Shown here piece by piece: positions 1 to 50,944 of a stretch of DNA of 64,000 bases; within the stretch, counting starts at the first letter, position 1; every line of letters starts with the position of its first letter. The translations under genes were made by a program, and so were the position numbers. The notes under the pieces are model-generated. The model had not been told where the DNA came from, did no database searches, and saw nothing but the letters and a program-made list of their open reading frames with translations. Source of the DNA: Acidobacteriota bacterium (lineage in GTDB: Bacteria > Acidobacteriota > Thermoanaerobaculia > Thermoanaerobaculales > Sulfomarinibacteraceae); the NCBI GenBank assembly GCA_022340775.1, contig JAJDNH010000025.1, positions 2,007 to 66,006 on the forward strand. The letters run 5' to 3'.

Positions 1-122
1 GCATCCTCCTCGTCGGTGCTCGTCCCCCCCGAGCCGTGCACATTGATTGACGGTTCGATTCTACCATCGAGCAACAATGCGATCATAAGAGATTGAAGTT
101 GCGACTCTGTATTTATTAATAA

Positions 123-145
123 ACTCCTACTTGACAACTCGGAGA
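123..145 (+). promoter_or_regulatory. Imperfect palindrome overlapping a TTGACA -35-like hexamer upstream of the Rrf2 gene (candidate promoter/operator)
   Basis: ACTCCTACTTGACAACTCGGAGA has 16 of 23 positions self-complementary. TTGACA is at 131-136. The site sits in a local AT-rich patch just upstream of the ATG at 167. Confidence 0.25.
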
Positions 146-166
146 ACTGGGATTATTGATAAGTTG

Positions 167-685
167 ATGCGACTCTCCACTCGGGCTCGTTACGCCCTTC
201 GCATGATGCTCGACATTGCCAAGAACAACCAGGGCAATAGGGCGGTCAGCTTGAGCTCCGTAGCGGCGCGGACCGACCTTTCCAGGGGTTACCTCGAGCA
301 GCTGGTCGTACCGCTTCGCAACGCTCGACTCCTGCGCGGAGTGGCTGGCCGCAACGGCGGCTACCGTCTCTGCCGGGCGCCCGATGAGATCACGCTGGGA
401 GAGATCATCGAAGCAGTCATCGGTCCGGTGTGCCTCGTGGGCTGCCTGGAGGATCCTGACAGCTGTTTGCGGACGCAGTACTGCGAGTGCCGGCTGGTCT
501 ATGCCCTGATCAACCATCGGATCGCCGAGGTCCTTCACGGGTTCACGCTCGCCGACCTCCTCGACCCTGCATGGGTGCGGACAACGGGCGCCGAGGTCGC
601 CCAGCTGTCCGGTCTCTCCGTGAGCTCACCGGCAACCCCCAGTTGCCGGGTTTCCAGGCAAGGAGGTCTCGACGATGCCCATTGA
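167..685 (+). CDS. Rrf2 (IscR/NsrR-like) family transcriptional regulator, probably Fe-S binding
   Basis: MRLSTRARYALRMMLDIA...LSSVAARTDLSRGYLEQLVVPLRNARLLRGVAGRNGGYRL is the Rrf2 winged-helix signature. Cys cluster VCLVGCLEDPDSC..YCEC is present. ATG at 167 is preferred over the TTG at 131. Confidence 0.85.
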   Translation: MRLSTRARYALRMMLDIAKNNQGNRAVSLSSVAARTDLSRGYLEQLVVPLRNARLLRGVAGRNGGYRLCRAPDEITLGEIIEAVIGPVCLVGCLEDPDSCLRTQYCECRLVYALINHRIAEVLHGFTLADLLDPAWVRTTGAEVAQLSGLSVSSPATPSCRVSRQGGLDDAH

Positions 686-1346
686 AGTCTCTCGCTTCAC
701 CGAGGTCCTCATGGATCAGGCGCAGCTCGTGGCGCTGGCCATCATGGCAGCGGTCTACCTGCTCAAGATCCGGTGGATCCTCAACCATGCAGCCGCCAGT
801 GAGCGGACTCCCGCCCGCGGCGACCACGGCAAGGCGATTCGTTACTCCTACGCGACGCTCGCCATGCCGTGGGAGCTGCCGAGCACGCGTCGGCACTGGT
901 TCCACTACCTGGAGTTTGCGTTCTTCCACATCGCGGTGGCGGTCGCCATCCTGGTCACATTCGTGATGCCCTACTGGCCGCGTCTGCTTTCCGGCCGAGA
1001 CATGGTGGACCTCCTGCAGATCGTGTTTGCAGTCGGTCTACTGGCCGCCGCGTCGCGCCTGACACGTCGCATCGGGACCCCCGCCATGCGAGCCGTTTCA
1101 TCGCCGGACGACTACTTTTCCCTGCTCATGCTGGGGACATGGTTCGCGGCCGCGATCCTGGCCGCGCCTCAGGCGAGCGAGCCGGCCCTGATCGCCTTCT
1201 TCGGTCTCACGGCCTTTTTCCTCGTTTACGTGCCGTTTTCGAAGATCTCGCACTACATCTACTGGCCGTTCATCCGCTACTACACCGGCAAGCACTTCGG
1301 GCACCGCGGCGTGTACCCCGCCAAGTCGGTGCCGCGGCACGCGTGA
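675..1346 (+). CDS. Polytopic membrane protein, NarI/DsrM/HdrE-like (putative quinone-interacting b-type cytochrome subunit)
   Basis: It has about 5 hydrophobic helices, with His residues inside helices (WFHYLEFAFFHIAVAV; FSKISHYIYWPF). AAGGAGG lies upstream of the ATG. The start overlaps the rrf2 stop and the gene sits directly upstream of an HdrD/DsrK-like gene, as in DsrMK/HdrED pairs. Confidence 0.5.
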   Translation: MPIEVSRFTEVLMDQAQLVALAIMAAVYLLKIRWILNHAAASERTPARGDHGKAIRYSYATLAMPWELPSTRRHWFHYLEFAFFHIAVAVAILVTFVMPYWPRLLSGRDMVDLLQIVFAVGLLAAASRLTRRIGTPAMRAVSSPDDYFSLLMLGTWFAAAILAAPQASEPALIAFFGLTAFFLVYVPFSKISHYIYWPFIRYYTGKHFGHRGVYPAKSVPRHA

Positions 1347-1358
1347 GGAGGTTCAGAG

Positions 1359-3116
1359 ATGGCAAGCGGAAACACTCAGAGCCCCAGCGCACGAGCGGTC
1401 GTCGAGGGTTTCAAGAACGGCCTCAGCAGACAGACGGTCCTTTCTCTCGGTGCTTGTGTCCACTGCGGGATGTGCAACGACTCCTGCCACTACTACCTCG
1501 CCACCGGCGATCCCCAGATGACGCCCGCGGCCAAGACCGACAAGGTCCGCAAGCTGTACAAGCGCCACGTTGACTGGCTAGGACGGGTGGCCCCGGCATG
1601 GGTCGGCGGGGCTACGCTGCGCACGGACGAGGATCTCCAAGCCCTCCAGGACGTGGTCTACGGGTCGTGCACGATGTGCCGGCGGTGCACGCTCTCGTGT
1701 CCGTTCGGCGTCGACACCGCGCTCATCATGCGCACGGCACGCGGCCTGCTGACTGCCCAGGGTTTCGCCCCCGAAGGCGTGAAGGTGGTGAGCAAGGATC
1801 AGTGGGAGATCGGCAACCAGATGGGCGTATCCAAGGAGGACTACCTGGAAACCCTCGACTGGCTGCAGGACGAGCTTCGCGGCGATGTCGGGGATCCTGA
1901 AGCGATGATCCCAATCGACAAGGAAGGCGCCCATGTGCTCTTCCTCGTCAACCCGCGGGAGATCAAGTACGCCCCGATGTCGCTGCTGGCAGCGGCGAAG
2001 ATCTTCTACGCAGCCGGCGAAGATTGGACGATGCCCTCGGTGGGTTGGGACAACACCAACTTCGGCCTCTTTTCCGGAGACAACAAGCTCGGTGCGCACA
2101 TGGGCAAGCTGGCCTACGACCAGGCGAGGAAGCTGGGAATCGGCAAGGTCGTGATTTCCGAGTGCGGTCACGGCTTCAGGGCGACCAAGTGGGAGGCACC
2201 CAACTGGGCCAAGGAGGATCTGCCGTTCCCCATGGAGAGCTTCCTCGAGACCATGGTCGAGTACGTTAATACCGGCCGTCTGACTCTCGACCCGACCGCC
2301 AACCCGCGGCCGGTGACCTACCATGATCCCTGCAACCTGGCACGCTCCGCCGGTATTACAGAGGAGCCGAGGTTCCTGCTCAAACGCTCGTGTCTCGACT
2401 TCCGCGAGATGACGCCGAACCGTCAGGAGAACTTCTGTTGCACCGGGGGTGGCGGCGCGATGTCGATGTCCGAGTATGCACAGCGCCGCCTACAGGTGGC
2501 GAGAGTCAAGGCGGACCAGATCCGCGCTACCGGCGCCGAGTCGGTGGCGACGGCTTGCCACAACTGCATCGACGGTCTGTCTGATCTGATCAAACACTAC
2601 GAGCTCAAAGTGCCGGTTCGCAACGTTTGCGAGTACGTGGCCGATGCCCTGGTGCTGCCGGCGCCGGCAATAGCCCGTGATGCTCTGATTCCCACCGGTT
2701 TGCGCGGGAAGAGGGTGCTCGTGATCGACGACGATCCGGACACGGTCGTCTACCTGACGACGCTGTTCGAAGATCAGGGCCTGGACACGGTATCCGCGCA
2801 CAACGCCGCCGAGGGCATGACGGCGGCACGCACGGCACAACCCGATCTGATCACGCTCGACATCTCGATGCCGGGACGATCGGGAGCGGACGTTTTCGCC
2901 AAGCTGCGGTCGGATGAGGTGCTGGCGCGGATCCCCGTCGTCATAGTAACCGGAGCGATCGACTTCAGGGAGCTCATGTACAGACGCAACGTCCCGCCGC
3001 CGGACGGGTATGTAGCGAAGCCGATCGATCCAGAGCTGCTCTTGATGACGCTCCGCAAAGTGTTGGAGGTCAGGCACCGCGAGGGTGTAGGCTCTGGGGA
3101 GGGCGCTGCGGTCTGA
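1359..3116 (+). CDS. HdrD/DsrK/GlpC-like Fe-S oxidoreductase (2x 4Fe-4S ferredoxin motif + 2 CCG-type Cys-rich regions) fused to a C-terminal response-regulator receiver domain
   Basis: Ferredoxin motifs are CVHCGMCNDSCHYY and CTMCRRCTLSCPFG. Cys-rich regions are HDPCNLAR, FCCTGGGG and ACHNC. A receiver domain spans aa 451-569 (VLVIDDD, phospho-site LITLD(501)ISMPG, VIVT(531)G, VAK(554)P). GAGGAGG SD is present. Confidence 0.8.
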   Translation: MASGNTQSPSARAVVEGFKNGLSRQTVLSLGACVHCGMCNDSCHYYLATGDPQMTPAAKTDKVRKLYKRHVDWLGRVAPAWVGGATLRTDEDLQALQDVVYGSCTMCRRCTLSCPFGVDTALIMRTARGLLTAQGFAPEGVKVVSKDQWEIGNQMGVSKEDYLETLDWLQDELRGDVGDPEAMIPIDKEGAHVLFLVNPREIKYAPMSLLAAAKIFYAAGEDWTMPSVGWDNTNFGLFSGDNKLGAHMGKLAYDQARKLGIGKVVISECGHGFRATKWEAPNWAKEDLPFPMESFLETMVEYVNTGRLTLDPTANPRPVTYHDPCNLARSAGITEEPRFLLKRSCLDFREMTPNRQENFCCTGGGGAMSMSEYAQRRLQVARVKADQIRATGAESVATACHNCIDGLSDLIKHYELKVPVRNVCEYVADALVLPAPAIARDALIPTGLRGKRVLVIDDDPDTVVYLTTLFEDQGLDTVSAHNAAEGMTAARTAQPDLITLDISMPGRSGADVFAKLRSDEVLARIPVVIVTGAIDFRELMYRRNVPPPDGYVAKPIDPELLLMTLRKVLEVRHREGVGSGEGAAV

Positions 3117-3144
3117 CGCCGGGCCGCGGCCCAGGAGGTCCAGG

Positions 3145-4593
3145 ATGACCGCCGAGGCCGGCCGAACCGAGATCTCGGGGCGACAGCTTCTTGACGCCCT
3201 CGGTGGGTTCAACCTGGTGGTGAATCGGGAGCTTGAGGTGCTCCAAGTGGGAGCGCCGCTGCGGGAGGCCTTGGGTGATGCCCTGGGCCTCCCGTGCTAC
3301 GGGGTGCTCCACGGGCGGGACGAACCCTGTCCAGACTGCCCGGCGCGCGCAGTCCTGGAATCCCGACAACGGGTCCTCGGTGCGGAGCTGACACCGACGA
3401 CTGGGGGTGGTACGACCGTTGTGCCGGTGACGGCGGCGCCGGTGCTGGCCGACGACGGCACCATCGTCGCGGTCGTGCTCACCGAGCTCGCCGGCGGCGG
3501 GACCGGAAGGCCCACCGAGGCGGCCCACGAGCGTGCCTGTGCAACCCTCTTCGAAGAGGTGCCCTGCTACATCGCAGTGATCGACGAGGATTTCCACCTG
3601 CTGCGCGTGAATCGCAAGGCGCGCGACGATTTCGGCGACCCGGCCGACGTCCTCGGGGTCCACTGCTACGAGCTGTTCAAGCGGCGCAGGGAGCCTTGTC
3701 TGAACTGCCCGACGGCGGCGACGTTCCGTGAGGGCAGCTCACGGACCAGCGAGGAGACGGTCATCACACGCAACGGCGAGCCCCGGCAGGTGCTGGTGAT
3801 CACCACACCGCTCCTCGACGCCGAAGGGGAAACGAGCCGCGTCATGGAGATGGCCACTGACATCACCGAAATCCGTCACATGCAGTCGCAGCTTGAGGCG
3901 CTGGGGATGCTGGTGGGTCGGATAGCGCACGACATCAAGGGTGTGCTGACCGGGCTCGACGGTGGGGTCTACATGGTCTCGACCGGGATGGAGCGGCGCG
4001 ATCAGGACCGACTCGACCGTGGTTGGCAGATGGTCCGACGCAACGTCGACCGAATCCGAACCCTGGCCCTCGACATCCTTTACTACGCCAAGGACCGCGA
4101 GCCCGACTGCCGTCTCGCTTCCCCGATCAAGGTGTTGGACACGGTGCTGGCGCGTCTCGAGCCGAGGGCGAAAGAGGCTGGCGTGTCGGTCCAGCGCGAC
4201 GTGGACCCGGAGGCGATTCGGTTCGAGGTCGACGTTCGTGCCGTTGAAGCACTCTTGACCAATCTCGCCGACAACGCGCTCGATGCTTGCCGTATCGACG
4301 AGCGGGAGGACGGGCACACCGTGCGCATGGCGGTGCGCGACGGTGCGGAGGAGGTCTTGTTCGTGGTCGAGGACAACGGCGTCGGCATGGACTCCGAGGG
4401 TCGCGCCAAGGCCTTTACGCCGTTCTTCTCATCGAAGGGCTCCAGTGGCACTGGCCTCGGGCTCTACATCGCTCACCGCATCGCTGTCCAGCACGGCGGT
4501 GGCATTGACCTCGACAGCGAGCTCGGGCGCGGTACAACCTTCACGGTGCATCTGCCCAAGCACTCCCACAGGGCACGCGCCAAACCGGCCTAG
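3145..4593 (+). CDS. Cytoplasmic sensor histidine kinase with two Cys-containing PAS-like modules, HisKA and HATPase_c
   Basis: H-box is LVGRIAHDIKGVLTGL. ATPase boxes are EDNGVGMD and GTGLGLYI. No TM segment is seen. The motif CY-x8-PC-x2-CP is repeated. AGGAGG SD is present. Confidence 0.85.
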   Translation: MTAEAGRTEISGRQLLDALGGFNLVVNRELEVLQVGAPLREALGDALGLPCYGVLHGRDEPCPDCPARAVLESRQRVLGAELTPTTGGGTTVVPVTAAPVLADDGTIVAVVLTELAGGGTGRPTEAAHERACATLFEEVPCYIAVIDEDFHLLRVNRKARDDFGDPADVLGVHCYELFKRRREPCLNCPTAATFREGSSRTSEETVITRNGEPRQVLVITTPLLDAEGETSRVMEMATDITEIRHMQSQLEALGMLVGRIAHDIKGVLTGLDGGVYMVSTGMERRDQDRLDRGWQMVRRNVDRIRTLALDILYYAKDREPDCRLASPIKVLDTVLARLEPRAKEAGVSVQRDVDPEAIRFEVDVRAVEALLTNLADNALDACRIDEREDGHTVRMAVRDGAEEVLFVVEDNGVGMDSEGRAKAFTPFFSSKGSSGTGLGLYIAHRIAVQHGGGIDLDSELGRGTTFTVHLPKHSHRARAKPA

Positions 4594-4860
4594 CCGCAGC
4601 GCAGGCGAGCGAGCGTGGGAGCCTCGAGCGCACGGTGGTGCTGGGCCCTGCCCTGGCGAGCTCGAGTGAAATGTCTGCCGTGCAAATGGTTCTGAGTGAG
4701 GTTCCTCGATGTGGCCAGTGATAGAATGATCGTCGAGGGTACTGGAGGGTATCGATGGGTACGGCCACGTCTGCCGCGAGTTCGGCTGTCGGGAGGCGCC
4801 GGGCCAGCACCGACGTAGCAGGCTGTGGAGGGCGCCAGGAACGACGCCAAGCCGGCGGCC

Positions 4861-5337
4861 ATGTGTGACGAGGGGCGGCCCCGGGGCGTCGAGGCCGGGC
4901 TGACGGTCATCGAGCTGTTGGTCACTGGGGCGCTGATCGCGACGCTGGCGTCGATTGTCATACCGCATTACACGAGTGCACAGAAGAAGATGCGCGTCAC
5001 ACGAGCGGTGACCGAGATCCGCTCGCTCGAGGCCGATATCGGCGTCTACATCAATGATCACGGAGAGCCCCCCGACACGCTGGTTCAGGCCGGCATCAGC
5101 ACGCCGCTTGACCCTTGGGGCAACCCGTATCAGTACCTGAAGATCATCAACGGTGGACCGGGCGCGAACGGCCAATCCCGAAAGGACCACTCGATGGTGC
5201 CGGTGAACTCGGACTACGATCTCTACAGCATGGGTCCGGATGGCAAGAGCCAGCCAGCGTTCACCTCCCAATCGAGCCGCGACGACATCGTTCGTGCCGG
5301 AGACGGCGCCTATGTCGGCCCGGTGTCCGACTTCTGA
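4861..5337 (+). CDS. Type II secretion GspG-like pseudopilin / type IV pilin-like protein (orphan)
   Basis: Prepilin leader and N-terminal helix G|LTVIELLVTGALIATLASIVIP, with Glu at +5. GspG-like core is DPWGNPYQY...YDLYSMGPDGK. The start at ATG 4861 is an assumption. Confidence 0.7.
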   Translation: MCDEGRPRGVEAGLTVIELLVTGALIATLASIVIPHYTSAQKKMRVTRAVTEIRSLEADIGVYINDHGEPPDTLVQAGISTPLDPWGNPYQYLKIINGGPGANGQSRKDHSMVPVNSDYDLYSMGPDGKSQPAFTSQSSRDDIVRAGDGAYVGPVSDF

Positions 5338-5351
5338 GGACGGGGGCAGGG

Positions 5352-7565
5352 GTGAAGATCCGCCTCAGGATGCTCACGACTCGGATCGGACACAGGATCC
5401 TGCTGCTGTTCGTGCTGTGCGCGCTGGTCCCGATCGTGACCCTGGCGGTGGTCTCGTACCGTGAAGTGGTGAGCGAGCTGCGTGCGCAGAGCGCCCGCCG
5501 TCTCCGTGAGTCGACCAAGATGGTGGGGCTCTCGGTGTACAACCGGATCCTTCTTCTCGAACACGACCTGCGGGCTTCCGGCTTGGACCAGGACCTCGAA
5601 GGAGCCAGCGGGCGGGGAACGGATGAACCCGCGGCGGCCCGCTTCGAGCAGGTGTTCACAGTCTCGGACACCGAGATGCCGGCTCAGCTTCGCAGGTCGG
5701 GTGAGACCGAGAACGCGGTCCAGGAGCGGCTTCGTTGGTTGAGAGACGGCGGATCGGTGCTGCTGTCGCAAGGAGGAGAGAGCGGTCGGCCGCGAGTGAC
5801 GTTGTTCGTCCGCAACCAGCGTCCCACGCTGGGAGCCGAGACTCTCGGTGCCGATATCAACCCCAGGTTCTTGTGGGGCGGGGACGGAGGAGGGATGGTC
5901 CCAGCCGGGTACCAGGCTTGCTGGTTCGACGACCGGCTGAAGCCCCTCTTCGCGTCGTTTCCAGGGTGTTCGGCGCTGCCGGCACTGCTCGGAAACGGAC
6001 CGAACGCTTTGGTTTCTGGCAGGGTAGGGCTTACGGCGGCTGGCACCGAATACCTCGCCGGCTACCGTCGGGTGTTCCTGAAAGGGCGATTCTCGGTCCG
6101 CGACTGGGTCGTCGTGCTGTGCGAGTCGAAGGCGAGCGTGCTGGCGCCGGTGGCGCAGTTCCGGCGCGTGTTTCCTCCGGTGGTCCTGATGACCCTCTGG
6201 GTCGTGATCCTCCTGAGCCTGATTACGCTGCGCAAGACTCTCGATCCGCTCGATCGGCTCAAGGCTGCTACCGGGCATCTGGCCGATCGCGACTTTCAAT
6301 GGCGCGTGGACGTCAACAGCGGCGATGAGTTCGAGGAGCTTGCGAGTGCATTCAACGACATGGCGGGCCGTCTCAAGAACCAGTTCAAAACTCAGGCGAT
6401 GATCGCGGAGCTCCATCGCACCATCCTGTCGGCGCTGGATCCCTCCCTGGTGGTCGAGGCGACAATCTCGGGCGTGCTCAAAACGCTGGAGTGCGAGCTC
6501 GCCTGCGTGGCCCTGTCGGAGGATATCGGCGGAACGATCACCCTGTACACGGGCCGCTCGGGGGCGACGGCAGTCGAGAGGTCGACTCACCGGCTGACGC
6601 AGCGGGACCGCGAGCGGATGAGCGAGGAGGGAACGGTCATCGATCTGGCGGACCGCGACGACTCGCTGAGGCATCTGACCGATGCGGACGGAGAGCTGGC
6701 CACCGTCATCCTGGCGCCGGTCGCGCTCAGAAGACGAGGGCCGGGCGCCCTGATCCTCGGCTGGCGGACAGAGGATGGGCTCGGGAGCTCCCGGGATCTC
6801 GAGGTGCGGCGGCTGGCGGATCAGCTCGAGGTTGCGCTTGCCAACTCATCCCTGGTTCAAGAGCTCGGCGACCTCACATGGGGAACGTTGCAGGCTCTGG
6901 CTCGTGCCGTGGACGCCAAATCCTCATGGACTGCAGGACACTCCGAACGGGTGACGCAAATCGCCCTCGAGATCGGCCGCGAGATGGGCCTGTCTCCCGA
7001 AGAGCTGAGACCGCTTCGCAGTGGCGCACTGCTGCACGACATCGGCAAGATCGGGGTACCGCGCCAGATTCTCGACAAGCCGTCGACGCTGGACGGGGAG
7101 GAGCTCCGTGCGATCCGTAGCCACCCGCTCATCGGCGAGCGGATCCTCGAGCCGATCGCGGCTTTTGAAGAGGCGTTGCCGATCATCTCGCAGCACCATG
7201 AGCGCTTCGACGGCTCCGGCTATCCGCGAGGGGTGACCGGAGCTGCGATCGACATCAAGGCCAGGATCCTCGCCGTCGCCGATGTTTACGATGCGATGAC
7301 CACGGTGCGGCCGTACCGCCAAGCTCGCAGCCACGAAACAGCAGTGGCCACGATCCGTGAGGGCTCCGGCAGTCAGTTCGATCCCGCCGTGGTCGGGGCT
7401 TTTCTGAGAATTATCGAGAGCTCTGGGCAGCCCGGCAGGGAGACAGCCCTGCCCCCCTCCGATGTGCCCGCAGAGAGTCATGAGGCGAACAGCTCCGTCG
7501 CCGGAGGCGCCAGCGGCGAGCCTCAGTCAACCCGTGATGGAGCGCAGCCTCCTGGGGGGACATGA
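5352..7565 (+). CDS. Membrane-anchored HAMP / HD-GYP domain protein (putative c-di-GMP phosphodiesterase)
   Basis: N-terminal TM ILLLFVLCALVPIVTLAVV, a second TM plus HAMP (LDPLDRLKAATGHLADRDFQWRV..FEELASAFNDMAGRL), and HD-GYP motifs HSERV, LLHDIGKIGVP, HHERFDGSGYPRG. The start is GTG 5352 or ATG 5370. Confidence 0.8.
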   Translation: MKIRLRMLTTRIGHRILLLFVLCALVPIVTLAVVSYREVVSELRAQSARRLRESTKMVGLSVYNRILLLEHDLRASGLDQDLEGASGRGTDEPAAARFEQVFTVSDTEMPAQLRRSGETENAVQERLRWLRDGGSVLLSQGGESGRPRVTLFVRNQRPTLGAETLGADINPRFLWGGDGGGMVPAGYQACWFDDRLKPLFASFPGCSALPALLGNGPNALVSGRVGLTAAGTEYLAGYRRVFLKGRFSVRDWVVVLCESKASVLAPVAQFRRVFPPVVLMTLWVVILLSLITLRKTLDPLDRLKAATGHLADRDFQWRVDVNSGDEFEELASAFNDMAGRLKNQFKTQAMIAELHRTILSALDPSLVVEATISGVLKTLECELACVALSEDIGGTITLYTGRSGATAVERSTHRLTQRDRERMSEEGTVIDLADRDDSLRHLTDADGELATVILAPVALRRRGPGALILGWRTEDGLGSSRDLEVRRLADQLEVALANSSLVQELGDLTWGTLQALARAVDAKSSWTAGHSERVTQIALEIGREMGLSPEELRPLRSGALLHDIGKIGVPRQILDKPSTLDGEELRAIRSHPLIGERILEPIAAFEEALPIISQHHERFDGSGYPRGVTGAAIDIKARILAVADVYDAMTTVRPYRQARSHETAVATIREGSGSQFDPAVVGAFLRIIESSGQPGRETALPPSDVPAESHEANSSVAGGASGEPQSTRDGAQPPGGT

Positions 7566-8063: not shown

Positions 8064-9134
8064 ATGGGACGGTTCATGAAGCGCTACAGCGCGCCGGGCA
8101 GCGTTCCTGGGAGCTTTGCCGAAAGGGCGCCCGAGGGCCCGTGTGCGGCGCTCGAGGTGATCCTTTACTCTCCCGAAGCGTACAGGCGGTTCGAAATCCC
8201 CTCGCTGGACAAGCTCCCGGACCCGAAACCCGGGACCGTGACGTGGCTCAACGTGGCGGGTCTCGACGGCGCCGTGCTCGAGCAGCTTACCTCGCGGTTC
8301 GGAATCCATCCGCTAGTCATGGAGGATGTCGTGAACCTCGGGCAGCGACCAAAGGTCGAGGCGTACGACGGCTACCTTTTCGTGGTGCTCGACCTGGTGA
8401 CATGGAACGAGGAGGCGCTGCATGTCGAGCGAGAGCAGGTCAGCCTTCTGCTCCTCGAGGGGCTAGTGATCTCGATCCAGGAGCGGCCCGGGGATGTGTT
8501 CGATCCGGTGCGGGAGCGCATCTCGTCGGCGCGGGGGCGGATCCGCACTGTCGGCGCTGATTACCTCCTCTACGCTCTCATCGATGCGGCGGTCGATCAT
8601 CTCTTCCCGGTCCTGGAGAGCGTCGGCGACCAGATCGAGGACCTCGAGGACGAGCTCGTGGAGGAGCCGTCCCGGGAGCACGTCGCCACCCTTCACGCGA
8701 TCAAGCGCGACCTGCTCAGTCTCAGACGTTCGACGTGGCCGTTGCGCGAGATGACGTCCAGGCTCGCTCGCGGCGAGAACGCGGCGTTTGCAGCCGACAC
8801 GGTTCCCTACCTTCGCGACGTTGCCGATCACGCGGTCCAGGTGCTCGATGTGTTGGAGAGCTTCCGAGATGTCGTCTCCGGTCTCATGGACCTGTACCTG
8901 TCCAGCGTCTCCAACCGCATGAACGAGGTCATGAAGGTGCTGACCATCATCGCGACGATCTTCATCCCGCTGGGGTTCATCGCCGGTCTGTACGGCATGA
9001 ACTTCAATCCAGCGGTCAGCCCTTACAACATGCCCGAGCTCGGATGGCGCTACGGCTACCCGTTCGCGCTCGCTGTCATGGCCACGGTCGCGGGAGTGAT
9101 GGTGTTCTACTTCTCCCGCCGCAAGTGGCTGTGA
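8064..9134 (+). CDS. corA: CorA-type magnesium/cobalt transporter
   Basis: C-terminal two TM helices with the YGMNF signature (GLYGMNFNPAVSPYNMPEL). GGAGG SD is present. Confidence 0.9.
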   Translation: MGRFMKRYSAPGSVPGSFAERAPEGPCAALEVILYSPEAYRRFEIPSLDKLPDPKPGTVTWLNVAGLDGAVLEQLTSRFGIHPLVMEDVVNLGQRPKVEAYDGYLFVVLDLVTWNEEALHVEREQVSLLLLEGLVISIQERPGDVFDPVRERISSARGRIRTVGADYLLYALIDAAVDHLFPVLESVGDQIEDLEDELVEEPSREHVATLHAIKRDLLSLRRSTWPLREMTSRLARGENAAFAADTVPYLRDVADHAVQVLDVLESFRDVVSGLMDLYLSSVSNRMNEVMKVLTIIATIFIPLGFIAGLYGMNFNPAVSPYNMPELGWRYGYPFALAVMATVAGVMVFYFSRRKWL

Positions 9135-9186
9135 CCGTGCCGGAGCCGGCTTGCGGGCCGGATGGTGGTTGACTACAGTGACTCTC

Positions 9187-10155
9187 ATGAAGATCAGCGA
9201 CTTCATGGAGCGCCACTACCGCCACTTCAACGCTGCAACCGTGGTGGACGCCGCCAAGGCCTACCGGCGCCTCGTCGATGACGGAGGGTTGATGTTCATG
9301 ACCCTTGCCGGAGCCATGAGCACCGCCGAGCTCGGCATCTCGCTGGCGGAGATGATCCGCCGGGGCAAGGTTCACGCCATCACCTGCACCGGTGCCAACC
9401 TCGAGGAGGACCTGTTCAACCTGGTCGCTCACGAGCACTACGTCCGGGTGCCGCACTACCGGGAGCTGGCGCCCGCCGATGAGCAGGCGCTGCTGGATCG
9501 GCACCTCAACCGCGTGACCGACACCTGCATCCCGGAGGAGGAGGCTTTCCGGAGGCTGGAGCAGGTGGTGCTCGACCTGTGGCAGGAGGCGGATCGTGCC
9601 GGGGAGCGCTACTTCCCGCACCAGTTCCTGTACCGTGCGCTGAGGACCGGGAGGCTCGAGGAGTACTACGAGATCGATGCTCGTGACTCATGGATGGTGG
9701 CGGCAGCCGAGAAGGACCTCCCGCTGTTCGTTCCTGGCTGGGAGGACTCGACCCTCGGCAACATCTTCGCGGCCCGCCTGATCGAGGGCGAGATCAGCAG
9801 CCCATCGACGGTTCGCTCGGGCATCGAGTACATGGCGGAGCTTGCCGACTGGTACACCCGCACCTCGGCCGAGCACCCGATCGGCTTCTTCCAGATCGGC
9901 GGCGGCATTGCCGGCGACTTCCCGATCTGTGTCGTGCCGATGCTGCACCAGGACCTGCGGCGCGACGAGGTGCCCCTGTGGGCCTACTTCTGCCAGATCT
10001 CCGACTCGACGACCAGCTACGGCTCGTACTCGGGCGCGGTGCCGAACGAGAAGATCACGTGGGGCAAGCTCGGCGTTCAGACGCCCAAGTTCGTGATCGA
10101 GTCCGACGCGACCATCGTGGCGCCGCTGGTCTTCGCCTACGTGCTGGGGGACTGA
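9187..10155 (+). CDS. Deoxyhypusine synthase-like protein (bacterial DHS-like, candidate homospermidine synthase)
   Basis: DHS-family blocks TLAGAMSTAELG, ITCTGANLEEDLF, FQIGGGIAGDF and SDSTTSYGSYSGAVPNEKITWGK. It lies next to speB/speA. Confidence 0.8.
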   Translation: MKISDFMERHYRHFNAATVVDAAKAYRRLVDDGGLMFMTLAGAMSTAELGISLAEMIRRGKVHAITCTGANLEEDLFNLVAHEHYVRVPHYRELAPADEQALLDRHLNRVTDTCIPEEEAFRRLEQVVLDLWQEADRAGERYFPHQFLYRALRTGRLEEYYEIDARDSWMVAAAEKDLPLFVPGWEDSTLGNIFAARLIEGEISSPSTVRSGIEYMAELADWYTRTSAEHPIGFFQIGGGIAGDFPICVVPMLHQDLRRDEVPLWAYFCQISDSTTSYGSYSGAVPNEKITWGKLGVQTPKFVIESDATIVAPLVFAYVLGD

Positions 10156-10159
10156 GCCC

Positions 10160-11047
10160 TCACGGAGCCCCGCCGCCTCCGGCGACAATCTCGGCCAGGA
10201 ACCGGTAGACCAGCTTGGCGGCGAGAAACTCGGACGCCCATTGACCGGGGGTGGGCAGCAGCTCGACCACGTCGAAGCCGACGACCCTGCGCTGCCGCGC
10301 GACCTCGGTCAGCAGATCCTCGACGTGGTGCCAGAGCAGGCCCCCGGGCTCCGGCGTGCCGGTGGCCGGGACCAGCGACGGATCGAAACCGTCGAGGTCG
10401 ATGGTGACGTAGACATCCTCGCCGAGCAGGGCGAGCGCACGGTCGATCCACGACCTTTCCCGTGGTCCGCAGCGGACGATGTCATGCGCCCACAACACCC
10501 GCGACTCGTCGAGGGCGGCGCGTTCGGAGACGTCGATGGAACGGATCCCGACCTGGACGATCGGCGCTACCTCGCGCGCTCGGGCCATGACGCAGGCGTG
10601 GTTGCAGGCCGAGCCCTCGTAGCTTTCCCGGGTGTCGGCATGGGCGTCGATCTGCAGCACCGACGTACCGGGCACGGCCCTGACGGCGGCGCGGATGGCA
10701 CCGATCGACACCGAGTGCTCGCCGCCCAGGACCACCGGCAGCCGGCCGTCCGCCAGCTGCTCGCCGACGCGCTCCTCGACCAGCTCGGCCAGCACCTCGG
10801 GGCCTTGGCTGCAGACCAGCGGCGGCAGCGTCGCGATCCCGATTCGCCACGGCTCGGTCGCGGTCGGGATGTCGTACAGCTCCATGTTCGCAGAGGCCTC
10901 GAGCAGCGCCGCAGGTCCCTGGTCGGCGCCCTTCTTCCAGGTCGAGGTCAGGTCGTAGGGCACCGGAAGCACCGCAACCGCGGCGGCGTTGAGGTCGACG
11001 GCTACCTCGGGGCCGCCGAACGGGACGAGTCGGGCAGCCGTTTTCAT
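10160..11047 (-). CDS. speB: Agmatinase (ureohydrolase family)
   Basis: Mn-binding ureohydrolase motifs GGEHSVSIG, QIDAHADT and TIDLDGFDP. It is adjacent to arginine decarboxylase. Confidence 0.8.
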   Translation of the reverse strand: MKTAARLVPFGGPEVAVDLNAAAVAVLPVPYDLTSTWKKGADQGPAALLEASANMELYDIPTATEPWRIGIATLPPLVCSQGPEVLAELVEERVGEQLADGRLPVVLGGEHSVSIGAIRAAVRAVPGTSVLQIDAHADTRESYEGSACNHACVMARAREVAPIVQVGIRSIDVSERAALDESRVLWAHDIVRCGPRERSWIDRALALLGEDVYVTIDLDGFDPSLVPATGTPEPGGLLWHHVEDLLTEVARQRRVVGFDVVELLPTPGQWASEFLAAKLVYRFLAEIVAGGGGAP

Positions 11048-11098
11048 GCGGTCTGTCCGGTATTCATGTCCCGATCGGCGGCTGAGGTTCTCATCGGG

Positions 11099-13057
11099 CT
11101 ACTCCAGGTACGTGTATCCGGTGAGGCCGTCGTCGTAGGCGGCGAGCAGCGTACGGCTCTCGGCAGCCGTCATCCTGCCCTCGCGGACCGAACGCTCGCA
11201 GTCCCGGCGTATGGCCTGGTACAGCTGCCGGTGGTCGTACTGAAGGTAGCTCAGAACCTCGTTGACGGTGTCGCCTTCGACCAGCTCTTCGACCGACCAG
11301 GCGCCGTCCTGGTCGACGGTGATGTGAACTAGGTGGGTGTCGCCGAACAGGTTGTGGAGGTCGCCGAGCGTTTCCTGATATGCGCCGACGAGGAAGGCGC
11401 CCAGGTAGTACGGCTCGTCCGGCCGCAGCTCGTGCACCGGCAGCGTCGACGCGACATCCCGCAGATCGACGAAGTGGTCGAGGTGGCCGTCGGAGTCGCA
11501 CGTGATGTCGGCCAAGGTGGCGCGCCGTACGGGCTCCTCGTCGAGGCGCTGGATCGGCAGCACCGGGAACACCTGGTCGATGGCCCACGAGTCCGGCAGC
11601 GACTGGAAGATCGAGAGGTTGCAGTAGTAGGTGTCGGAGATCTTGTGGTCGAGCTCGGCCAGCTCCTCCGGGACCAGTTCGAGATCGCGCGTGAGAGCAT
11701 CGATCTTGAGGCAGACGGTCCAGTACAGGCGATCGACGAGGCCTCGGTGCAAGAGGCTGAGGTGGCCAACGGTGAAAAGGGTCAGGGCCTCCTGGTGGGC
11801 CTGGATGGCGTCGTGATAGCTCTCGAGCAGGGTGTCCGGCTCGACGGACTGGGCGGCGGACACCAGGTCGGAGACCACTCGTGGCAGGTCCTCGTCCTTG
11901 GCGAGCCGAGCCAGCTCGGCCTTGCCGACTTCCCAGCGGTCGATGCACGAGGCGCCCAGGACGTCGAAGACGAGCACGCTATGATGGCAGACCATGGCCC
12001 TGCCGGCCTCGGTGACGATGGTCGGGTGCTCCACGCCCGCGTCGTCGCAGACGCTCTGGAGGCGGTAGACGACGGTCATCGCGTACTCGCTGAGTGTGTA
12101 GTTGGTGGAGAAGTCCCAGTTGGTCTGGCTGCCGTCGTAGTCGACACCGAGACCGCCGCCGACGTCGATGTACTTGAGGTCGGTTCCCATCTTCTGGAGC
12201 TCGACGAAGATCTGGGCGAGCTCGGTGACTCCCGCGTTGATGACCTGAATGTCCGTAATCTGGCTGCCCATGTGGCAGTGGAGCAGCTCGAGGCACTCGA
12301 GCATTCCGGCCTTGCGGAGCCGCGACACGACCTCCAGCACTCCCGGGATGGCGAGCCCGAACTTGGCTTTCTCTCCCGACGACTCATGCCAGCGCCCACT
12401 GCCGGCCCGGCTGAGCTTCACCCGGACGCCGATGCGGGGGCGGATACCGGCTCTGCGTGCCTCGCGGAGGATGACCTCGAGCTCGGACATGTTCTCGATG
12501 ACGGCCACGATGCGGCGGCCGAGCTTGGTTGCCAGCAGGTAGTGGCGGATGTACTTGGCCTCCTTGAAACCGTTGCAGATGATCAGGCGCCGGGGTGCCT
12601 CCGAGGTGAGCCCCATGACCGCCAACAGCTCCGGCTTGGAGCCGACCTCGAGCCCGAAGCCGAGATCCCTCCCCAGGCGCTCGATCTGCTCCACCAGGTA
12701 GCGGTGCTGGTTGACCTTGGTCGGGTAGACGGGGGCGTAGCTGCCGGTGTACCCACACTCCGAGATGGCCTCGGAGAAGGCCTCGGCCATCAGCCGCATC
12801 CGGCGGGCCAGGAGATCACGGAAGCCGATCAGAACCGGAGTACTGATGCCCCGGTCCGCCAGCCCCTGCACGACCTCGTAAAGGTCGACCCGCGGACCAT
12901 CCGGGCCGTGGGGCATGACCAGTATGTGCCCGTTGGCGCCGAGCTCGAAGATATCCTCGCCCCAGCCGTCCACCATGTACAGGGCCGCCGAGTCGGCCGT
13001 TGTCCACTCTTCACTGACCCCCGCGTCCTCAGCTGGGTGCATGCGTTCGTCATCCAT
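11099..13057 (-). CDS. speA: Biosynthetic arginine decarboxylase
   Basis: 652 aa, with SpeA-type N-terminus (YMVDGWGEDIFELGANGHILVMP) and a PLP-fold type III core (YPTKVN, GGGLGVDYDG). Confidence 0.9.
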   Translation of the reverse strand: MDDERMHPAEDAGVSEEWTTADSAALYMVDGWGEDIFELGANGHILVMPHGPDGPRVDLYEVVQGLADRGISTPVLIGFRDLLARRMRLMAEAFSEAISECGYTGSYAPVYPTKVNQHRYLVEQIERLGRDLGFGLEVGSKPELLAVMGLTSEAPRRLIICNGFKEAKYIRHYLLATKLGRRIVAVIENMSELEVILREARRAGIRPRIGVRVKLSRAGSGRWHESSGEKAKFGLAIPGVLEVVSRLRKAGMLECLELLHCHMGSQITDIQVINAGVTELAQIFVELQKMGTDLKYIDVGGGLGVDYDGSQTNWDFSTNYTLSEYAMTVVYRLQSVCDDAGVEHPTIVTEAGRAMVCHHSVLVFDVLGASCIDRWEVGKAELARLAKDEDLPRVVSDLVSAAQSVEPDTLLESYHDAIQAHQEALTLFTVGHLSLLHRGLVDRLYWTVCLKIDALTRDLELVPEELAELDHKISDTYYCNLSIFQSLPDSWAIDQVFPVLPIQRLDEEPVRRATLADITCDSDGHLDHFVDLRDVASTLPVHELRPDEPYYLGAFLVGAYQETLGDLHNLFGDTHLVHITVDQDGAWSVEELVEGDTVNEVLSYLQYDHRQLYQAIRRDCERSVREGRMTAAESRTLLAAYDDGLTGYTYLE

Positions 13058-47412: not shown

Positions 47413-48000
47413 CTAGAGCGAGACGGGGCGGGAGCCGGGCTTCTCGATCGGCCTGCCCTCCGCACACAGCGGGCACTGAGCGGGGTCCCAGGTCGGGAAG
47501 CTCACCGTCAGCAGGGCCGCATAGGGTAGGTTGTCGAACGGATTCTCGCTGCCGGAACGGTTCACGATTGACGCCAGGGCGATGACCCGCGCGCCCGCCT
47601 TCTCCAGAACCTCGATGACCTCGCGCGTCGACTTTCCTGTGGTCACCACGTCCTCGACCACAACGGCTCGTTGCCCCGATCTCACTGCAAAGCCGCGACG
47701 CAAGGTCATGTTGCCTTCCTGACGTTCGGTGAAGATGAAAGGCAGCTCGAGGGTGCGAGCCGTTTCGTGACCGATAATGAGACCACCCAGTGCGGGCGAC
47801 ACAATCAACTCCGGCTCGACCTCAAGCCGTGACACGGCGGCCGCGAGGAGCCTGCCGGCACGCTCGGCGCGACGCGGGTCGGCAAGGAACAGGGCGCACT
47901 GGAGGTAGTCGCCGGAATGCAGCCCTGAGGAGAGGCGGAAGTGGCCACGCCGGTGGGCGCCCGCTGCGGTCAGGTCATCGAGGGTCAACGGCGTCGTCAT
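47413..48000 (-). CDS. pyrE: Orotate phosphoribosyltransferase
   Basis: GHFRLSSGLHS is present. The PRPP loop is VVVEDVVTTGKST. Confidence 0.9.
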   Translation of the reverse strand: MTTPLTLDDLTAAGAHRRGHFRLSSGLHSGDYLQCALFLADPRRAERAGRLLAAAVSRLEVEPELIVSPALGGLIIGHETARTLELPFIFTERQEGNMTLRRGFAVRSGQRAVVVEDVVTTGKSTREVIEVLEKAGARVIALASIVNRSGSENPFDNLPYAALLTVSFPTWDPAQCPLCAEGRPIEKPGSRPVSL

Positions 48001-49346
48001 GAGGGCTCCCGTTCGATCCCGTAGGTCTGGATTTTCTTGTACAGGTTGGAGCGCGGCGTGTCGATGGCGCGAGCCGTGGCGGCAATGTTCCAGCCGTTGA
48101 GCTCCAGCTGATGGGCGATGTAGGCTCGCTCCGCGGCCCGCTGGAAGTCGTGAAGCGTCGGAGCGTCCAGTAGCCCGCTGGTCTCCGCGGCGGCTGGTGC
48201 GCCCAGAAAGTCAATGCTGCGGATGACATCATCGAGCTCCATGATGACGGCGCGCTCGACAGTGTTTTTGAGCTCGCGGACGTTGCCGGGCCATGCGTAG
48301 CGGCAGAGCTCGGCGAGGGCCGCCTCGTCCCACCGCTTGAGGCGTCGGTTGTACTCCTCGCATGAGGCCCTCGTCAGGTGCTCCACGAGCAGCGGGATGT
48401 CCTCGGCGTGCTCGCGCAAGGGGGGCGTTCTCAACATGACCACCGCGAGCCTGTAGTAGAGGTCCTCGCGGAACCTCCCCTCGGTCACCTCGTGTACCAG
48501 GTCCTTGTTGGTGGCTGCGATGACCCGGACATCGACCGTGAAGGGCTCGCCGGCGCCGACCGGCTCGACCTCGCCATCCTGAAGCACGCGCAGTACCTTG
48601 GCCTGGGTCTTAAGCGACATGTCGCCGACCTCATCGAGGAAGATCGTTCCGCCGTTGGCTTGCACGAACTTCCCCACCTGTCGCCGGTGGGCGCCAGTGA
48701 ACGAGCCCTTCTCGTGCCCGAACAGCTCGGATTCGATCAACTCCTCGGGGATGGCGGCGCAGTTGACGCGGATGAAGGCCGCCTTGGCTCGGGCCGAGAG
48801 ACGGTGGAGACGACGAGCCACCAGCTCCTTTCCGGTGCCGGACTCACCTCGCACGAGAACGGTTGCCCGTGACGGGGCAACACGCGCGATCTCCTCGCGC
48901 AGCCGGCGCATGACGAGGCTGTCGCCGAGCAGTGGAGGCGGCTCGAGGTCGGTGGTTTCTTGACGGGCGAGGCGCCCTTGAGCAACCGCGCCGCGGATTG
49001 CCAGCAGCAGCTCGGAGCGGTCCGGCGGCTTGGTCAGGTAAGAGGCCGCTCCCGCCTCTAGGCAGTCGCGTGCCGTGAACTCGTCGCCGTGGCCGGTGAG
49101 GATCACTACCGGGATCTCCAGCCCGCGCTGGCGGAGGTTCTCCATCAAGCGCAAGCCGTCCATGCCGGGCATCTTGATGTCGAGCAGCATCGCGTCGGGA
49201 GGCGTCGTGTCGAGCCTGTCCAGCGCCTGAAAAGCATCCGACGCCTCATCGACCTGATAACCGGCGCCGCTCAGGATCCGCTGCAGGATCTTCCGGACCC
49301 CCTGTTCGTCGTCGACGATCAGAACCCGGCCTTCCACCGATCTCAC
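47997..49346 (-). CDS. Sigma54-dependent response regulator (NtrC family: REC + AAA+ + Fis-type HTH)
   Basis: VLIVDDE...LLDIKMPGMDG, GESGTGKE, GAFTGA-like GSFTGA, and a C-terminal HTH AATARAIDTPRSNLYKKI. Confidence 0.9.
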   Translation of the reverse strand: MRSVEGRVLIVDDEQGVRKILQRILSGAGYQVDEASDAFQALDRLDTTPPDAMLLDIKMPGMDGLRLMENLRQRGLEIPVVILTGHGDEFTARDCLEAGAASYLTKPPDRSELLLAIRGAVAQGRLARQETTDLEPPPLLGDSLVMRRLREEIARVAPSRATVLVRGESGTGKELVARRLHRLSARAKAAFIRVNCAAIPEELIESELFGHEKGSFTGAHRRQVGKFVQANGGTIFLDEVGDMSLKTQAKVLRVLQDGEVEPVGAGEPFTVDVRVIAATNKDLVHEVTEGRFREDLYYRLAVVMLRTPPLREHAEDIPLLVEHLTRASCEEYNRRLKRWDEAALAELCRYAWPGNVRELKNTVERAVIMELDDVIRSIDFLGAPAAAETSGLLDAPTLHDFQRAAERAYIAHQLELNGWNIAATARAIDTPRSNLYKKIQTYGIEREPS

Positions 49347-50872: not shown

Positions 50873-50944
50873 CAGCAGTCCTCCTTGACTTCTCCGATCC
50901 TCCGGACGCGGGGAGTGTACCACCGGCGACGGCCGCTGAAGCCG

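Follow-up and report, generated by a model that had tools for sequence, protein, structure and literature searches.

Organization of the locus

The window, 64,000 nucleotides of contig JAJDNH010000025.1 (GenBank assembly GCA_022340775.1) from an acidobacterial metagenome-assembled genome (MAG), carries near its left end an operon of four co-directional genes, the third of which encodes an iron-sulfur (Fe-S) protein of predicted DsrK/HmcF/TmcB type fused to a receiver domain (REC). All four genes lie on the forward strand. Gene 1 (167..685) encodes a Rrf2-family regulator recognized by Pfam and NCBIfam; the mechanical open reading frame (ORF) starts at TTG131. Gene 2 (675..1346) encodes a five-helix, NarI/TmcC/HmcE-like membrane subunit of 223 aa, as judged by NCBIfam and its AlphaFold2 (AF2) fold. 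Gene 3 (1359..3116; Pfam, NCBIfam) encodes the fusion protein, with the Fe-S catalytic domain in the N-terminal ~445 aa (1359..2693; Pfam, NCBIfam) and the C-terminal receiver at aa 451-569 (2709..3065; PF00072). Gene 4 (3145..4593; Pfam) encodes a soluble PAS-PAS histidine kinase.

Genes 1 and 2 overlap by 11 nt, ATG675 of gene 2 lying inside the Rrf2 ORF, which ends with TGA at 683-685. Gene 3 follows gene 2 after 12 nt, and gene 4 follows gene 3 after 28 nt. AGGAGG or GGAGG stands 6-8 nt 5' of each ATG in genes 2-4, and no Shine-Dalgarno sequence was found before the start of gene 1. Both the spacing of the four genes and the strong Shine-Dalgarno sequences of genes 2-4 are as described in the first-pass annotation of this DNA, which was made from the sequence alone.

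The fusion protein

The 120 best database matches to gene 3 share 57-84% identity with it and are 514-618 aa long (two are shorter); residue conservation was computed on 118 homologues. The highest NCBIfam scores of the Fe-S protein were obtained with HmcF (NF045711; 2e-92, 310 bits against a cut-off of 750), TmcB (NF045724; 1e-89, 301 bits against 735) and DsrK (NF045796; 3e-76, 257 bits against 400). Because all three scores fall below the equivalog cut-offs, the sequence of gene 3 is placed in a separate subfamily that is orthologous to none of HmcF, TmcB and DsrK.

The Pfam matches were Fer4_8 (1.2e-10), Fer4_17 and CCG (4.9e-12), the last over a single stretch, aa 319-403. Two ferredoxin-type motifs, C33xxC36xxC39xxxC43 and C104xxC107xxC110xxxC114P, had been noticed at first pass, and all eight of their Cys are invariant. 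The two CCG-type Cys-rich regions proposed at the same time were reduced to one: a full CCG motif (C325...C360C361...C400xxC403) is invariant in the 118 homologues, and the first CCG-like region retains only C269, within S267-E-C269-G-H271. All Cys ligands, this SECGH motif and D405 are invariant or nearly so among the homologues, the C, G and H of the motif fully. The ECGH of gene 3 aligns with the ECGH of representatives that score above the DsrK cut-off. One non-cubane [4Fe-4S] cluster together with the Cys of (T/G)ECGH is the signature of DsrK, HmcF and TmcB, and this Cys is the likely catalytic residue in all three (Cys329/His331 in DsrK) (PMC10861901; bioRxiv 10.64898/2026.08.25.746951). 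By its motifs, the Fe-S domain of gene 3 is assigned to the DsrK/HmcF/TmcB type and not to the two-CCG HdrD/HdrB/GlpC type; the HdrD/DsrK/GlpC-like identity suggested earlier thus stands in its DsrK part and falls for HdrD and GlpC. The closest solved structure is Mycobacterium smegmatis EtfD (9ojn; E 2.6e-15, 476 columns, 20% identity), which was also matched at the sequence level (E 3e-15).

The invariant D405 was considered as the equivalent of DsrK Asp500, which stands in for the supernumerary Cys ligand, and rejected, because true DsrK representatives lack Asp at that site. In the same alignment E425 falls at the position where these representatives have an invariant Asp, which does not fix its equivalence to DsrK Asp500.

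The receiver was matched by PF00072 at aa 453-564 (5.7e-18, 65.6 bits against a cut-off of 30.2), over profile positions 1-109 of 111, and its best NCBIfam match was the DVU0259_DivK family (1.5e-24). Three cassette receivers were examined, and all score highest with the DVU0259 model, at 73-108 bits, below its cut-off of 160. In the AF2 model, strands and helices alternate over residues 452-577 as in CheY. Foldseek returned DivK, RR468, PhoB and Spo0F with target-normalised TM scores of 0.85-0.93, and DivK and PleD were among the best matches of the receiver profile to sequences in the Protein Data Bank (PDB). The phosphorylation pocket is conserved among the 118 homologues (D457 in 109, D458 in 117, D501 in 112, T or S at 531 in 118, K554 in 117), and position 551, the aromatic switch, holds Y or F. 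Pfam, fold and pocket conservation therefore agree on a complete receiver at aa 451-569, as originally read, and from its sequence the fused receiver looks functional.

Distribution and synteny

PF00072 was absent from only two of the 120 best matches. The hosts of the set belong to Acidobacteriota, Desulfobacterota, Methylomirabilota, Latescibacterota, Planctomycetota, Myxococcota, Armatimonadota and others. An identical protein is present in the public collection under the label 'MAG: response regulator [Acidobacteria bacterium]', and the closest named relative is from Vicinamibacteria (78% identity). Labels given to these proteins in the database are 'response regulator' or 'Fe-S oxidoreductase/CheY-like chemotaxis protein' only.

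When one genome was scanned for each species, at least 80 verified fusion loci were obtained, which are those of the 80 best-matching genomes, all MAGs, from about 15 phyla. The figure of 585 genomes returned by the scan includes unfused DsrK-like matches, the pattern VTYHDPCN being common to both kinds of protein; 80 loci were verified. Ignavibacteria, Bacteroidota, Zixibacteria, Gemmatimonadota, Elusimicrobiota, Spirochaetales and Fibrobacteraceae are added to the host range by these loci. In a library clustered at 50% identity, few full-length fused representatives were present, the best with 587 aa and 64% identity and the next with 549 aa and 50% identity. The nearest unfused full-length protein there had 44% identity, and true DsrK had 37-39%.

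Synteny was counted with tblastn on loci with enough flanking DNA, and antisense shadow ORFs of high-GC loci were ignored. The fused receiver is present in 80/80 loci, a homologue of gene 2 lies directly upstream in 76/76, and a PAS kinase follows directly downstream in 68/72. Conserved in 76/76 and 68/72 informative loci from many phyla, the gene 2-3-4 arrangement is far beyond chance, and the proposal that membrane gene, fusion and kinase constitute one functional unit is strongly supported by their synteny across phyla. The cofactor, catalytic-type, phospho-acceptor and kinase-box residues, and the linkage itself, are under strong purifying selection across phyla. A single-domain receiver gene stands right after the kinase gene in 50/68 loci, and any other receiver is encoded in 49/56; Thermoanaerobaculia and other acidobacterial loci also carry a receiver gene divergently. 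Rrf2 is found upstream in 28/66 loci.

A Macro-domain gene lies directly upstream of gene 2 in 64/72 loci. Its product is an ADP-ribose-binding/hydrolase-like domain of ~180 aa (for example locus L014, 4654-5199, and locus L052, 4737-5282), and this neighbor may point to a connection with ADP-ribosylation or an NAD-derived signal. The Macro gene is absent from the present locus and likewise from its closest relatives, L001-L008.

About 10 of 52 loci contain a second module downstream, composed of a PF02665 NarI-like protein and a 535-aa DsrK-like protein with GECGH and without a receiver, which scored 328 bits with the DsrK model against the cut-off of 400. In many cases the second module comes after a gene for a MerR-type regulator whose tail is Cys-rich (listed at L045 ~10200-12786, L032 8468-11010 and L043 4437-5372). 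In L004, L052, L062 and L066 a separate receiver gene comes directly after a DsrK-like gene, an arrangement that is a split form of the fused pair.

The membrane subunit

Gene 2 had no Pfam match, and its sole NCBIfam matches were TmcC (3e-11) and HmcE (1e-7), both over the full length; some of its homologues carry PF02665. The AF2 model (pLDDT 86, pTM 0.82) consists of five long helices, and the top eight PDB matches in the fold search were all NarI (probability 1.0, TM 0.43-0.51, full-length alignment). A search of PDB sequences with gene 2 alone gave noise only; with the family profile, the best matches were NarI. The NarI-like membrane partner with about five transmembrane helices assumed at first pass is thereby supported.

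Eight His are present in gene 2, of which just H85 and H193 are conserved or invariant among 55 homologues. H85 aligns with NarI H56 (FFHIAV/LFHIGI) and H193 with NarI H205 (PFSKISH/PFSRLIH), and gene 2 has no His at the positions of NarI H66 and H187. We take H56 and H205 to be the ligands of the proximal, cytoplasm-side haem of NarI and H66 and H187 those of the distal haem, with which the PDB title 'NarI-H66Y' is consistent. Since only H85 and H193 are conserved and these correspond to the proximal ligands, gene 2 probably binds a single haem b, as EtfD does, and is not a di-haem protein like DsrM or NarI. The role of a DsrM/NarI-type cytochrome b suggested earlier accordingly fits in fold and in two conserved His, and fails at the missing distal-haem ligands.

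A metagenomic protein of 670 aa, P0245, combines in a single chain a gene-2-like membrane domain, with both His kept, and a DsrK-like domain, which carries SPCGH where gene 3 has SECGH. A second candidate for a natural fusion of genes 2 and 3, P0196, was rejected as a frameshifted gene call.

The histidine kinase and the Rrf2 regulator

Gene 4 was matched in Pfam by PAS_4 (3.7e-19, aa 136-243), PAS_9 and HATPase_c (2.1e-23, 83 bits); no HisKA match was found at E<=0.01. Among 53 syntenic homologues the H-box H262 is invariant, as are N373/N377, D410-G412-G414, F424/F427 and G435-G437-G439 of the N, G1, F and G2 ATP boxes. C51, C62 and C65 of the first PAS domain and C141, C174, C185 and C188 of the second are each conserved in 98% of these homologues, and C382 in 100%. 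No hydrophobic segment was seen on inspection. The Pfam domains and the seven conserved PAS Cys uphold the earlier call, and gene 4 is predicted to encode a soluble histidine kinase with two Cys-containing PAS domains. A search for solved Cys- or metal-binding relatives of the PAS region found none.

Gene 1 was matched by Pfam Rrf2 (PF02082; 3.5e-32, 111.8 bits against a cut-off of 30) and by TIGR00738 (4.6e-31, 107 bits against 73). The equivalog models IscR, NsrR, CymR and RirA all scored under their cut-offs. The most likely start, from the alignment, is ATG167 (MRLSTRARY...), rather than 123 or 131, because position 1 of the Pfam profile falls at MRLSTRARY. The Cys triad Cx6Cx5C, at ORF positions 105/112/118 or C93/C100/C106 counted from ATG167, is invariant in 18 syntenic homologues, and gene 1 is on this ground predicted to be a cluster-binding Rrf2 protein. 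The profile matches and the three-Cys motif bear out the Fe-S-type Rrf2 regulator first proposed here. Its inclusion in the set holds for this locus, and in the related loci counted above Rrf2 is a common but not a constant partner; other Cys-rich regulators are found elsewhere, either HTH_17/MerR types or an LMWPc-PAS-sigma54 activator with a similar Cys motif in its PAS domain.

The activator, which consists of a low-molecular-weight (LMW) phosphatase/ArsC-like domain, a PAS domain (CxnCx3Cx2C) and a sigma-54 AAA+ domain, is encoded upstream in, for example, L044 (1536-3281) and L077 (187-1929). The HTH_17/MerR protein has a Cys-rich middle and is an alternative upstream regulator (listed with L033 3937-4716). 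A gene for an ATP sulfurylase (Sat-like by sequence inspection) adjoins the cassette in loci of NC10, for example L003 (listed at 3883-5178) and L021.

Flanking DNA

Extension of the same contig to the left (L081, in which window position 1 corresponds to position 3821) revealed a single-domain receiver gene divergent from the Rrf2 gene. It encodes 134 aa (PF00072; L081 3416-3820, minus strand), and its start codon lies directly left of window position 1. Its product shares 37% identity with the fused receiver and 35% with the single-domain receivers encoded after the kinase in other loci, and its top score was with the DVU0259 family model, as for the other cassette receivers. This protein is probably the second receiver of the cassette, and since its gene adjoins the window, the full signalling set of one kinase and two receivers would be present here.

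The intergenic or promoter region between the two divergent genes occupies window positions 1..166, without strand assignment, as delimited by the contig extension. It contains the repeat GATTGAnnnTnCGAnTCT at 45-62 and 91-108, and the direct repeat TGCGACTCT is found at 100-108 in the same region and at 168-176 in the start of the Rrf2 gene. By reading of the sequence, TTGACA at 131-136 is followed, after a 17-nt spacer, by TATTGA ending 8 nt before ATG167. The repeats and the TTGACA/TATTGA pair are possible operator and promoter elements, and because TATTGA ends so close to the start codon, the Rrf2 mRNA may be leaderless. A promoter and terminator scan gave no signal above background.

The window was searched for a Macro-domain gene, a single-domain receiver, a second NarI/DsrK pair, a MerR-Cys regulator and Sat, and none was found. 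The same search returned only an apparently unrelated NtrC-type regulator (47997-49346, minus strand), with a receiver and a sigma-54 AAA+ activator domain that cross-matched the queries; its gene follows a 526-aa ORF (49343-50923, minus strand). Directly 3' of the kinase gene, at 4825-7565, are genes for a pseudopilin resembling protein G of type II secretion (170 aa) and for a membrane protein with HAMP and HD-GYP (HD_5) domains (737 aa), which do not adjoin the cassette consistently in other genomes. A gene for a CorA Mg2+ channel (8064-9134) precedes a polyamine-type cluster (9151-13057) with deoxyhypusine-synthase-like (PF01916), arginase-family and arginine decarboxylase genes.

Functional interpretation

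The cassette is interpreted here as encoding a phosphorylation-gated quinone-to-thiol/sulfur oxidoreductase, a reading that is given an even chance of being correct. The products of genes 2 and 3 would be the two subunits of a redox complex in the membrane that belongs to the HmcEF/TmcBC/DsrMK/EtfD type; a physical complex is supported by the existence of the P0245 fusion and of EtfD as single chains and by the place of gene 2 directly upstream in 76/76 loci. The cytoplasm-side haem b (His85/His193) would join the (mena)quinone pool to the two [4Fe-4S] clusters, which would pass electrons to the non-cubane [4Fe-4S] site with the catalytic Cys269. At this site a cytoplasmic disulfide, persulfide or trisulfide, of a protein or a small thiol, may be reduced, or the reaction may run in reverse. 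With a haem on the cytoplasmic side only, such a path would not be electrogenic.

The Cys-rich PAS domains of the kinase would detect a redox, metal or sulfur signal in the cytoplasm, and the kinase would phosphorylate Asp501, which would gate catalysis, substrate access or docking to the membrane subunit in the manner of CheB or PleD. The divergent single-domain receiver would probably be served by the same kinase as a branch or phosphate sink, and the putative Fe-S-type Rrf2 protein would control transcription of the operon. Because the cassette has no DNA-binding response regulator and its other receiver is a single domain, the two-component output would have to be at the protein level. For the same reason, and because the kinase has sensory PAS domains of its own, the Fe-S domain is preferred as the effector of the fused receiver.

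Several observations weigh against this interpretation. The distal haem is absent from the membrane subunit; it lies beside the quinol site in NarI, and coupling to quinone would therefore rest on analogy with EtfD. The putative phospho-acceptor D501 is Asn in 5 of the 118 homologues. In the AF2 model the linker before the receiver is of low confidence (residues 437-440, pLDDT <50), and the receiver is placed without a predicted contact to the catalytic site. No dsrC/tusE-like, cytochrome c or catabolic gene was consistently linked to the cassette in the 80 loci, and full-text literature searches found no description of the fusion or of the cassette. The upstream regulators of Rrf2, MerR or sigma-54 type, the kinase and the two receivers would fit a signalling device equally well.

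Such a device forms the alternative that has to be taken most seriously, rather unlikely as it is judged to be. The gene 2-gene 3 complex would then be a redox-sensing input in place of a primarily metabolic enzyme, a wire that senses the quinone pool or the cytoplasmic status of thiols and sulfane sulfur. How the fused receiver gains or loses phosphate would depend on whether the clusters are reduced or oxidized; it would act as a redox-controlled phosphate sink or scaffold and leave the output to the single-domain receiver. The predominance of signalling genes and the lack of linked catabolic genes agree with this, as does the very diverse physiology of the hosts, among them Acidobacteriota, Gemmatimonadota, Planctomycetota and NC10. 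Having lost the distal haem and lacking a cytochrome partner in the periplasm, the membrane subunit does not appear built for transmembrane, energy-conserving electron transfer, and the paralogous single-domain receiver in nearly all loci (49/56, as above) fits branched designs with one kinase and two receivers. A second elaborate sensor is, however, not obviously needed beside a kinase that already has two Cys-PAS sensors, and no downstream target of the single-domain receiver could be identified. The invariance of SECGH and of the full CCG motif is as expected for turnover chemistry, although substrate binding could also select for it. The more specific proposal of a novel type of two-component input, in which the redox occupancy of a complete HdrED/EtfD-like electron wire (quinone, haem b, [4Fe-4S] clusters and a non-cubane cluster with a thiol/sulfur ligand) is read by the fused receiver and steers phosphate between the kinase and the two receivers, is likewise tentative and on the doubtful side.

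Two further explanations were considered. An ordinary Hmc/Tmc/DsrMK respiratory module of dissimilatory sulfur metabolism that reduces DsrC trisulfide, with the receiver as a fused Rrf1-type tuner of expression and no effect on the enzyme, would account for HmcF, TmcB and DsrK as the best-scoring families, for the ECGH shared with true DsrK, for the adjacent Sat gene in 6/52 loci and for the additional DsrM-like/DsrK-like pairs in about 10/52; Rrf1 and Rrf2 do regulate hmc expression in Desulfovibrio vulgaris. It is nevertheless improbable: the three equivalog cut-offs are not reached, identity to true DsrK is just 37-39%, distal haem ligands are missing, and neither an HmcA/TmcA-type cytochrome c gene nor DsrJOP belongs to the cassette. 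No HmcA/TmcA-type gene was found in the cassette of the window, a multihaem protein is encoded in just 4/80 loci, and no recurrent cytochrome c cluster stands beside the core. Most of the host lineages are not known to reduce sulfate or sulfite, and a receiver without a DNA-binding domain cannot alone regulate transcription. Still more improbable is an EtfD-like input, in which a cytoplasmic flavoprotein (electron transfer flavoprotein, ETF, or similar) would feed menaquinone and the receiver would tune the entry of electrons. EtfD is the closest solved structure and has a five-helix, single-haem design with the quinone site beside the haem; set against this are the 20% identity, the reduction of its four-Cys [3Fe-4S] site to Cys269 in SECGH, and the finding that etfAB and acyl-CoA dehydrogenase genes are not recurrent in the 80 neighborhoods.

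Two-component control of redox metabolism is usually pictured as transcriptional, and the fusion points to a post-translational route. A receiver in the catalytic subunit suggests that signalling is rapidly coupled to the exchange of electrons with the quinone pool, a coupling of which no example was found in the searched literature. Its recurrence across phyla suggests that phosphorylation control of a quinone-linked redox enzyme is common. If the gating reading is right, this would be the first two-component system whose output directly phospho-gates a quinone-linked membrane redox enzyme; if the complex is a sensor, electron transfer would be coupled to phosphotransfer in a design conserved over about 15 phyla. 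By Rosetta-stone reasoning, the Rrf1-type single-domain receivers encoded beside hmcF and tmcB, a 30-year-old puzzle, are predicted to bind the Fe-S subunit and not DNA. The cassette also marks a large DsrK-like subfamily outside the classical sulfate reducers.

Comparison with known systems

The cassette is not a categorically new system and relates to the HmcEF, TmcBC, DsrMK and EtfD modules and to their receiver and Rrf2 companions. The first-pass annotation was aware of no characterised example; this holds for the fusion and overlooked the unfused hmc/rrf1/rrf2 precedent. The genes rrf1 and rrf2 are regulators in the hmc cluster of D. vulgaris, and the association of a redox module with a receiver and Rrf2 is old, the Rrf2 family being named after the Rrf2 of this cluster. 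The order hmcF-rrf1-rrf2 presumably corresponds to DVU0531-0529, and DVU0258-DVU0260 (a kinase and receivers including DVU0259) are taken here to adjoin the tmc genes.

The end of the hmc cluster of Desulfovibrio (Nitratidesulfovibrio) vulgaris Hildenborough, hmcE-hmcF-rrf1-rrf2, encodes the same four kinds of protein as the present locus: the NarI-related HmcE, HmcF of the GlpC superfamily, the receiver Rrf1 and the founding Rrf2. Of the NCBIfam models, HmcF gives the highest score with gene 3, and the HmcF protein has one CCG motif and T/GECGH. Here, in contrast, the rrf1-type receiver is fused to the HmcF-like subunit, HmcABCD are lacking, a soluble Cys-PAS kinase is added, and Rrf2 is encoded upstream instead of downstream; the HmcF and HmcE equivalog cut-offs lie far above the observed scores, and the host is an acidobacterial MAG. 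Rrf1 (DVU_0530) has been cited as affecting regulation of the hmc operon, and the single-domain response regulator CstR finds its strongest structural matches in Rrf1 homologues (PMC13344952). Hmc/Tmc genes of sulfate reducers have response regulators and histidine kinases as neighbors: in Desulfococcus multivorans the Hmc genes lie downstream of tmcA1, and genes for response regulators, kinases and a universal stress protein stand on their flanks, 'resembling' D. vulgaris (PMC5109826).

With Tmc the cassette shares near-top family matches (TmcB, TmcC) and receivers for all of which the DVU0259 model is the best; it differs in the absence of the TmcA cytochrome c3 and of TmcD and in a receiver that is fused and not separate. 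DsrMK, the core of the DsrC-trisulfide reductase DsrMKJOP, likewise pairs a NarI-like membrane protein with a subunit that has two [4Fe-4S] clusters, one non-cubane cluster and GECGH. Gene 3 is set apart from DsrK by its low identity, DsrM has two haems whereas gene 2 has ligands for one, and the cassette has no DsrJOP genes and an added receiver.

EtfD has five transmembrane helices and a haem b (His78/His241) located 7 Å from the last cluster and 4-5 Å from menaquinone, and four Cys of its CCG domains bind a linear [3Fe-4S] cluster (PMC13083937). Mycobacterial EtfD (Rv0338c; 9ojn), in which two cubanes and a non-cubane cluster are wired to menaquinone through a single bis-His haem b, is the best template for a single-haem complex of genes 2 and 3. 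Unlike the latter, it is one polypeptide, receives electrons from ETF and has no receiver, and gene 3 has the DsrK-type SECGH. CheB and PleD/DivK offer the parallel of a canonical receiver on an enzyme, and of a DivK-like single-domain receiver presumably served by the same kinase. In the cassette the output would be the metallo-redox subunit of a membrane complex, and the receiver is C-terminal. New features of the cassette are the covalent fusion, a Cys-PAS kinase of its own, the absence through loss of the distal haem and of all periplasmic and cytochrome c components, and a spread that reaches far beyond sulfate reducers.

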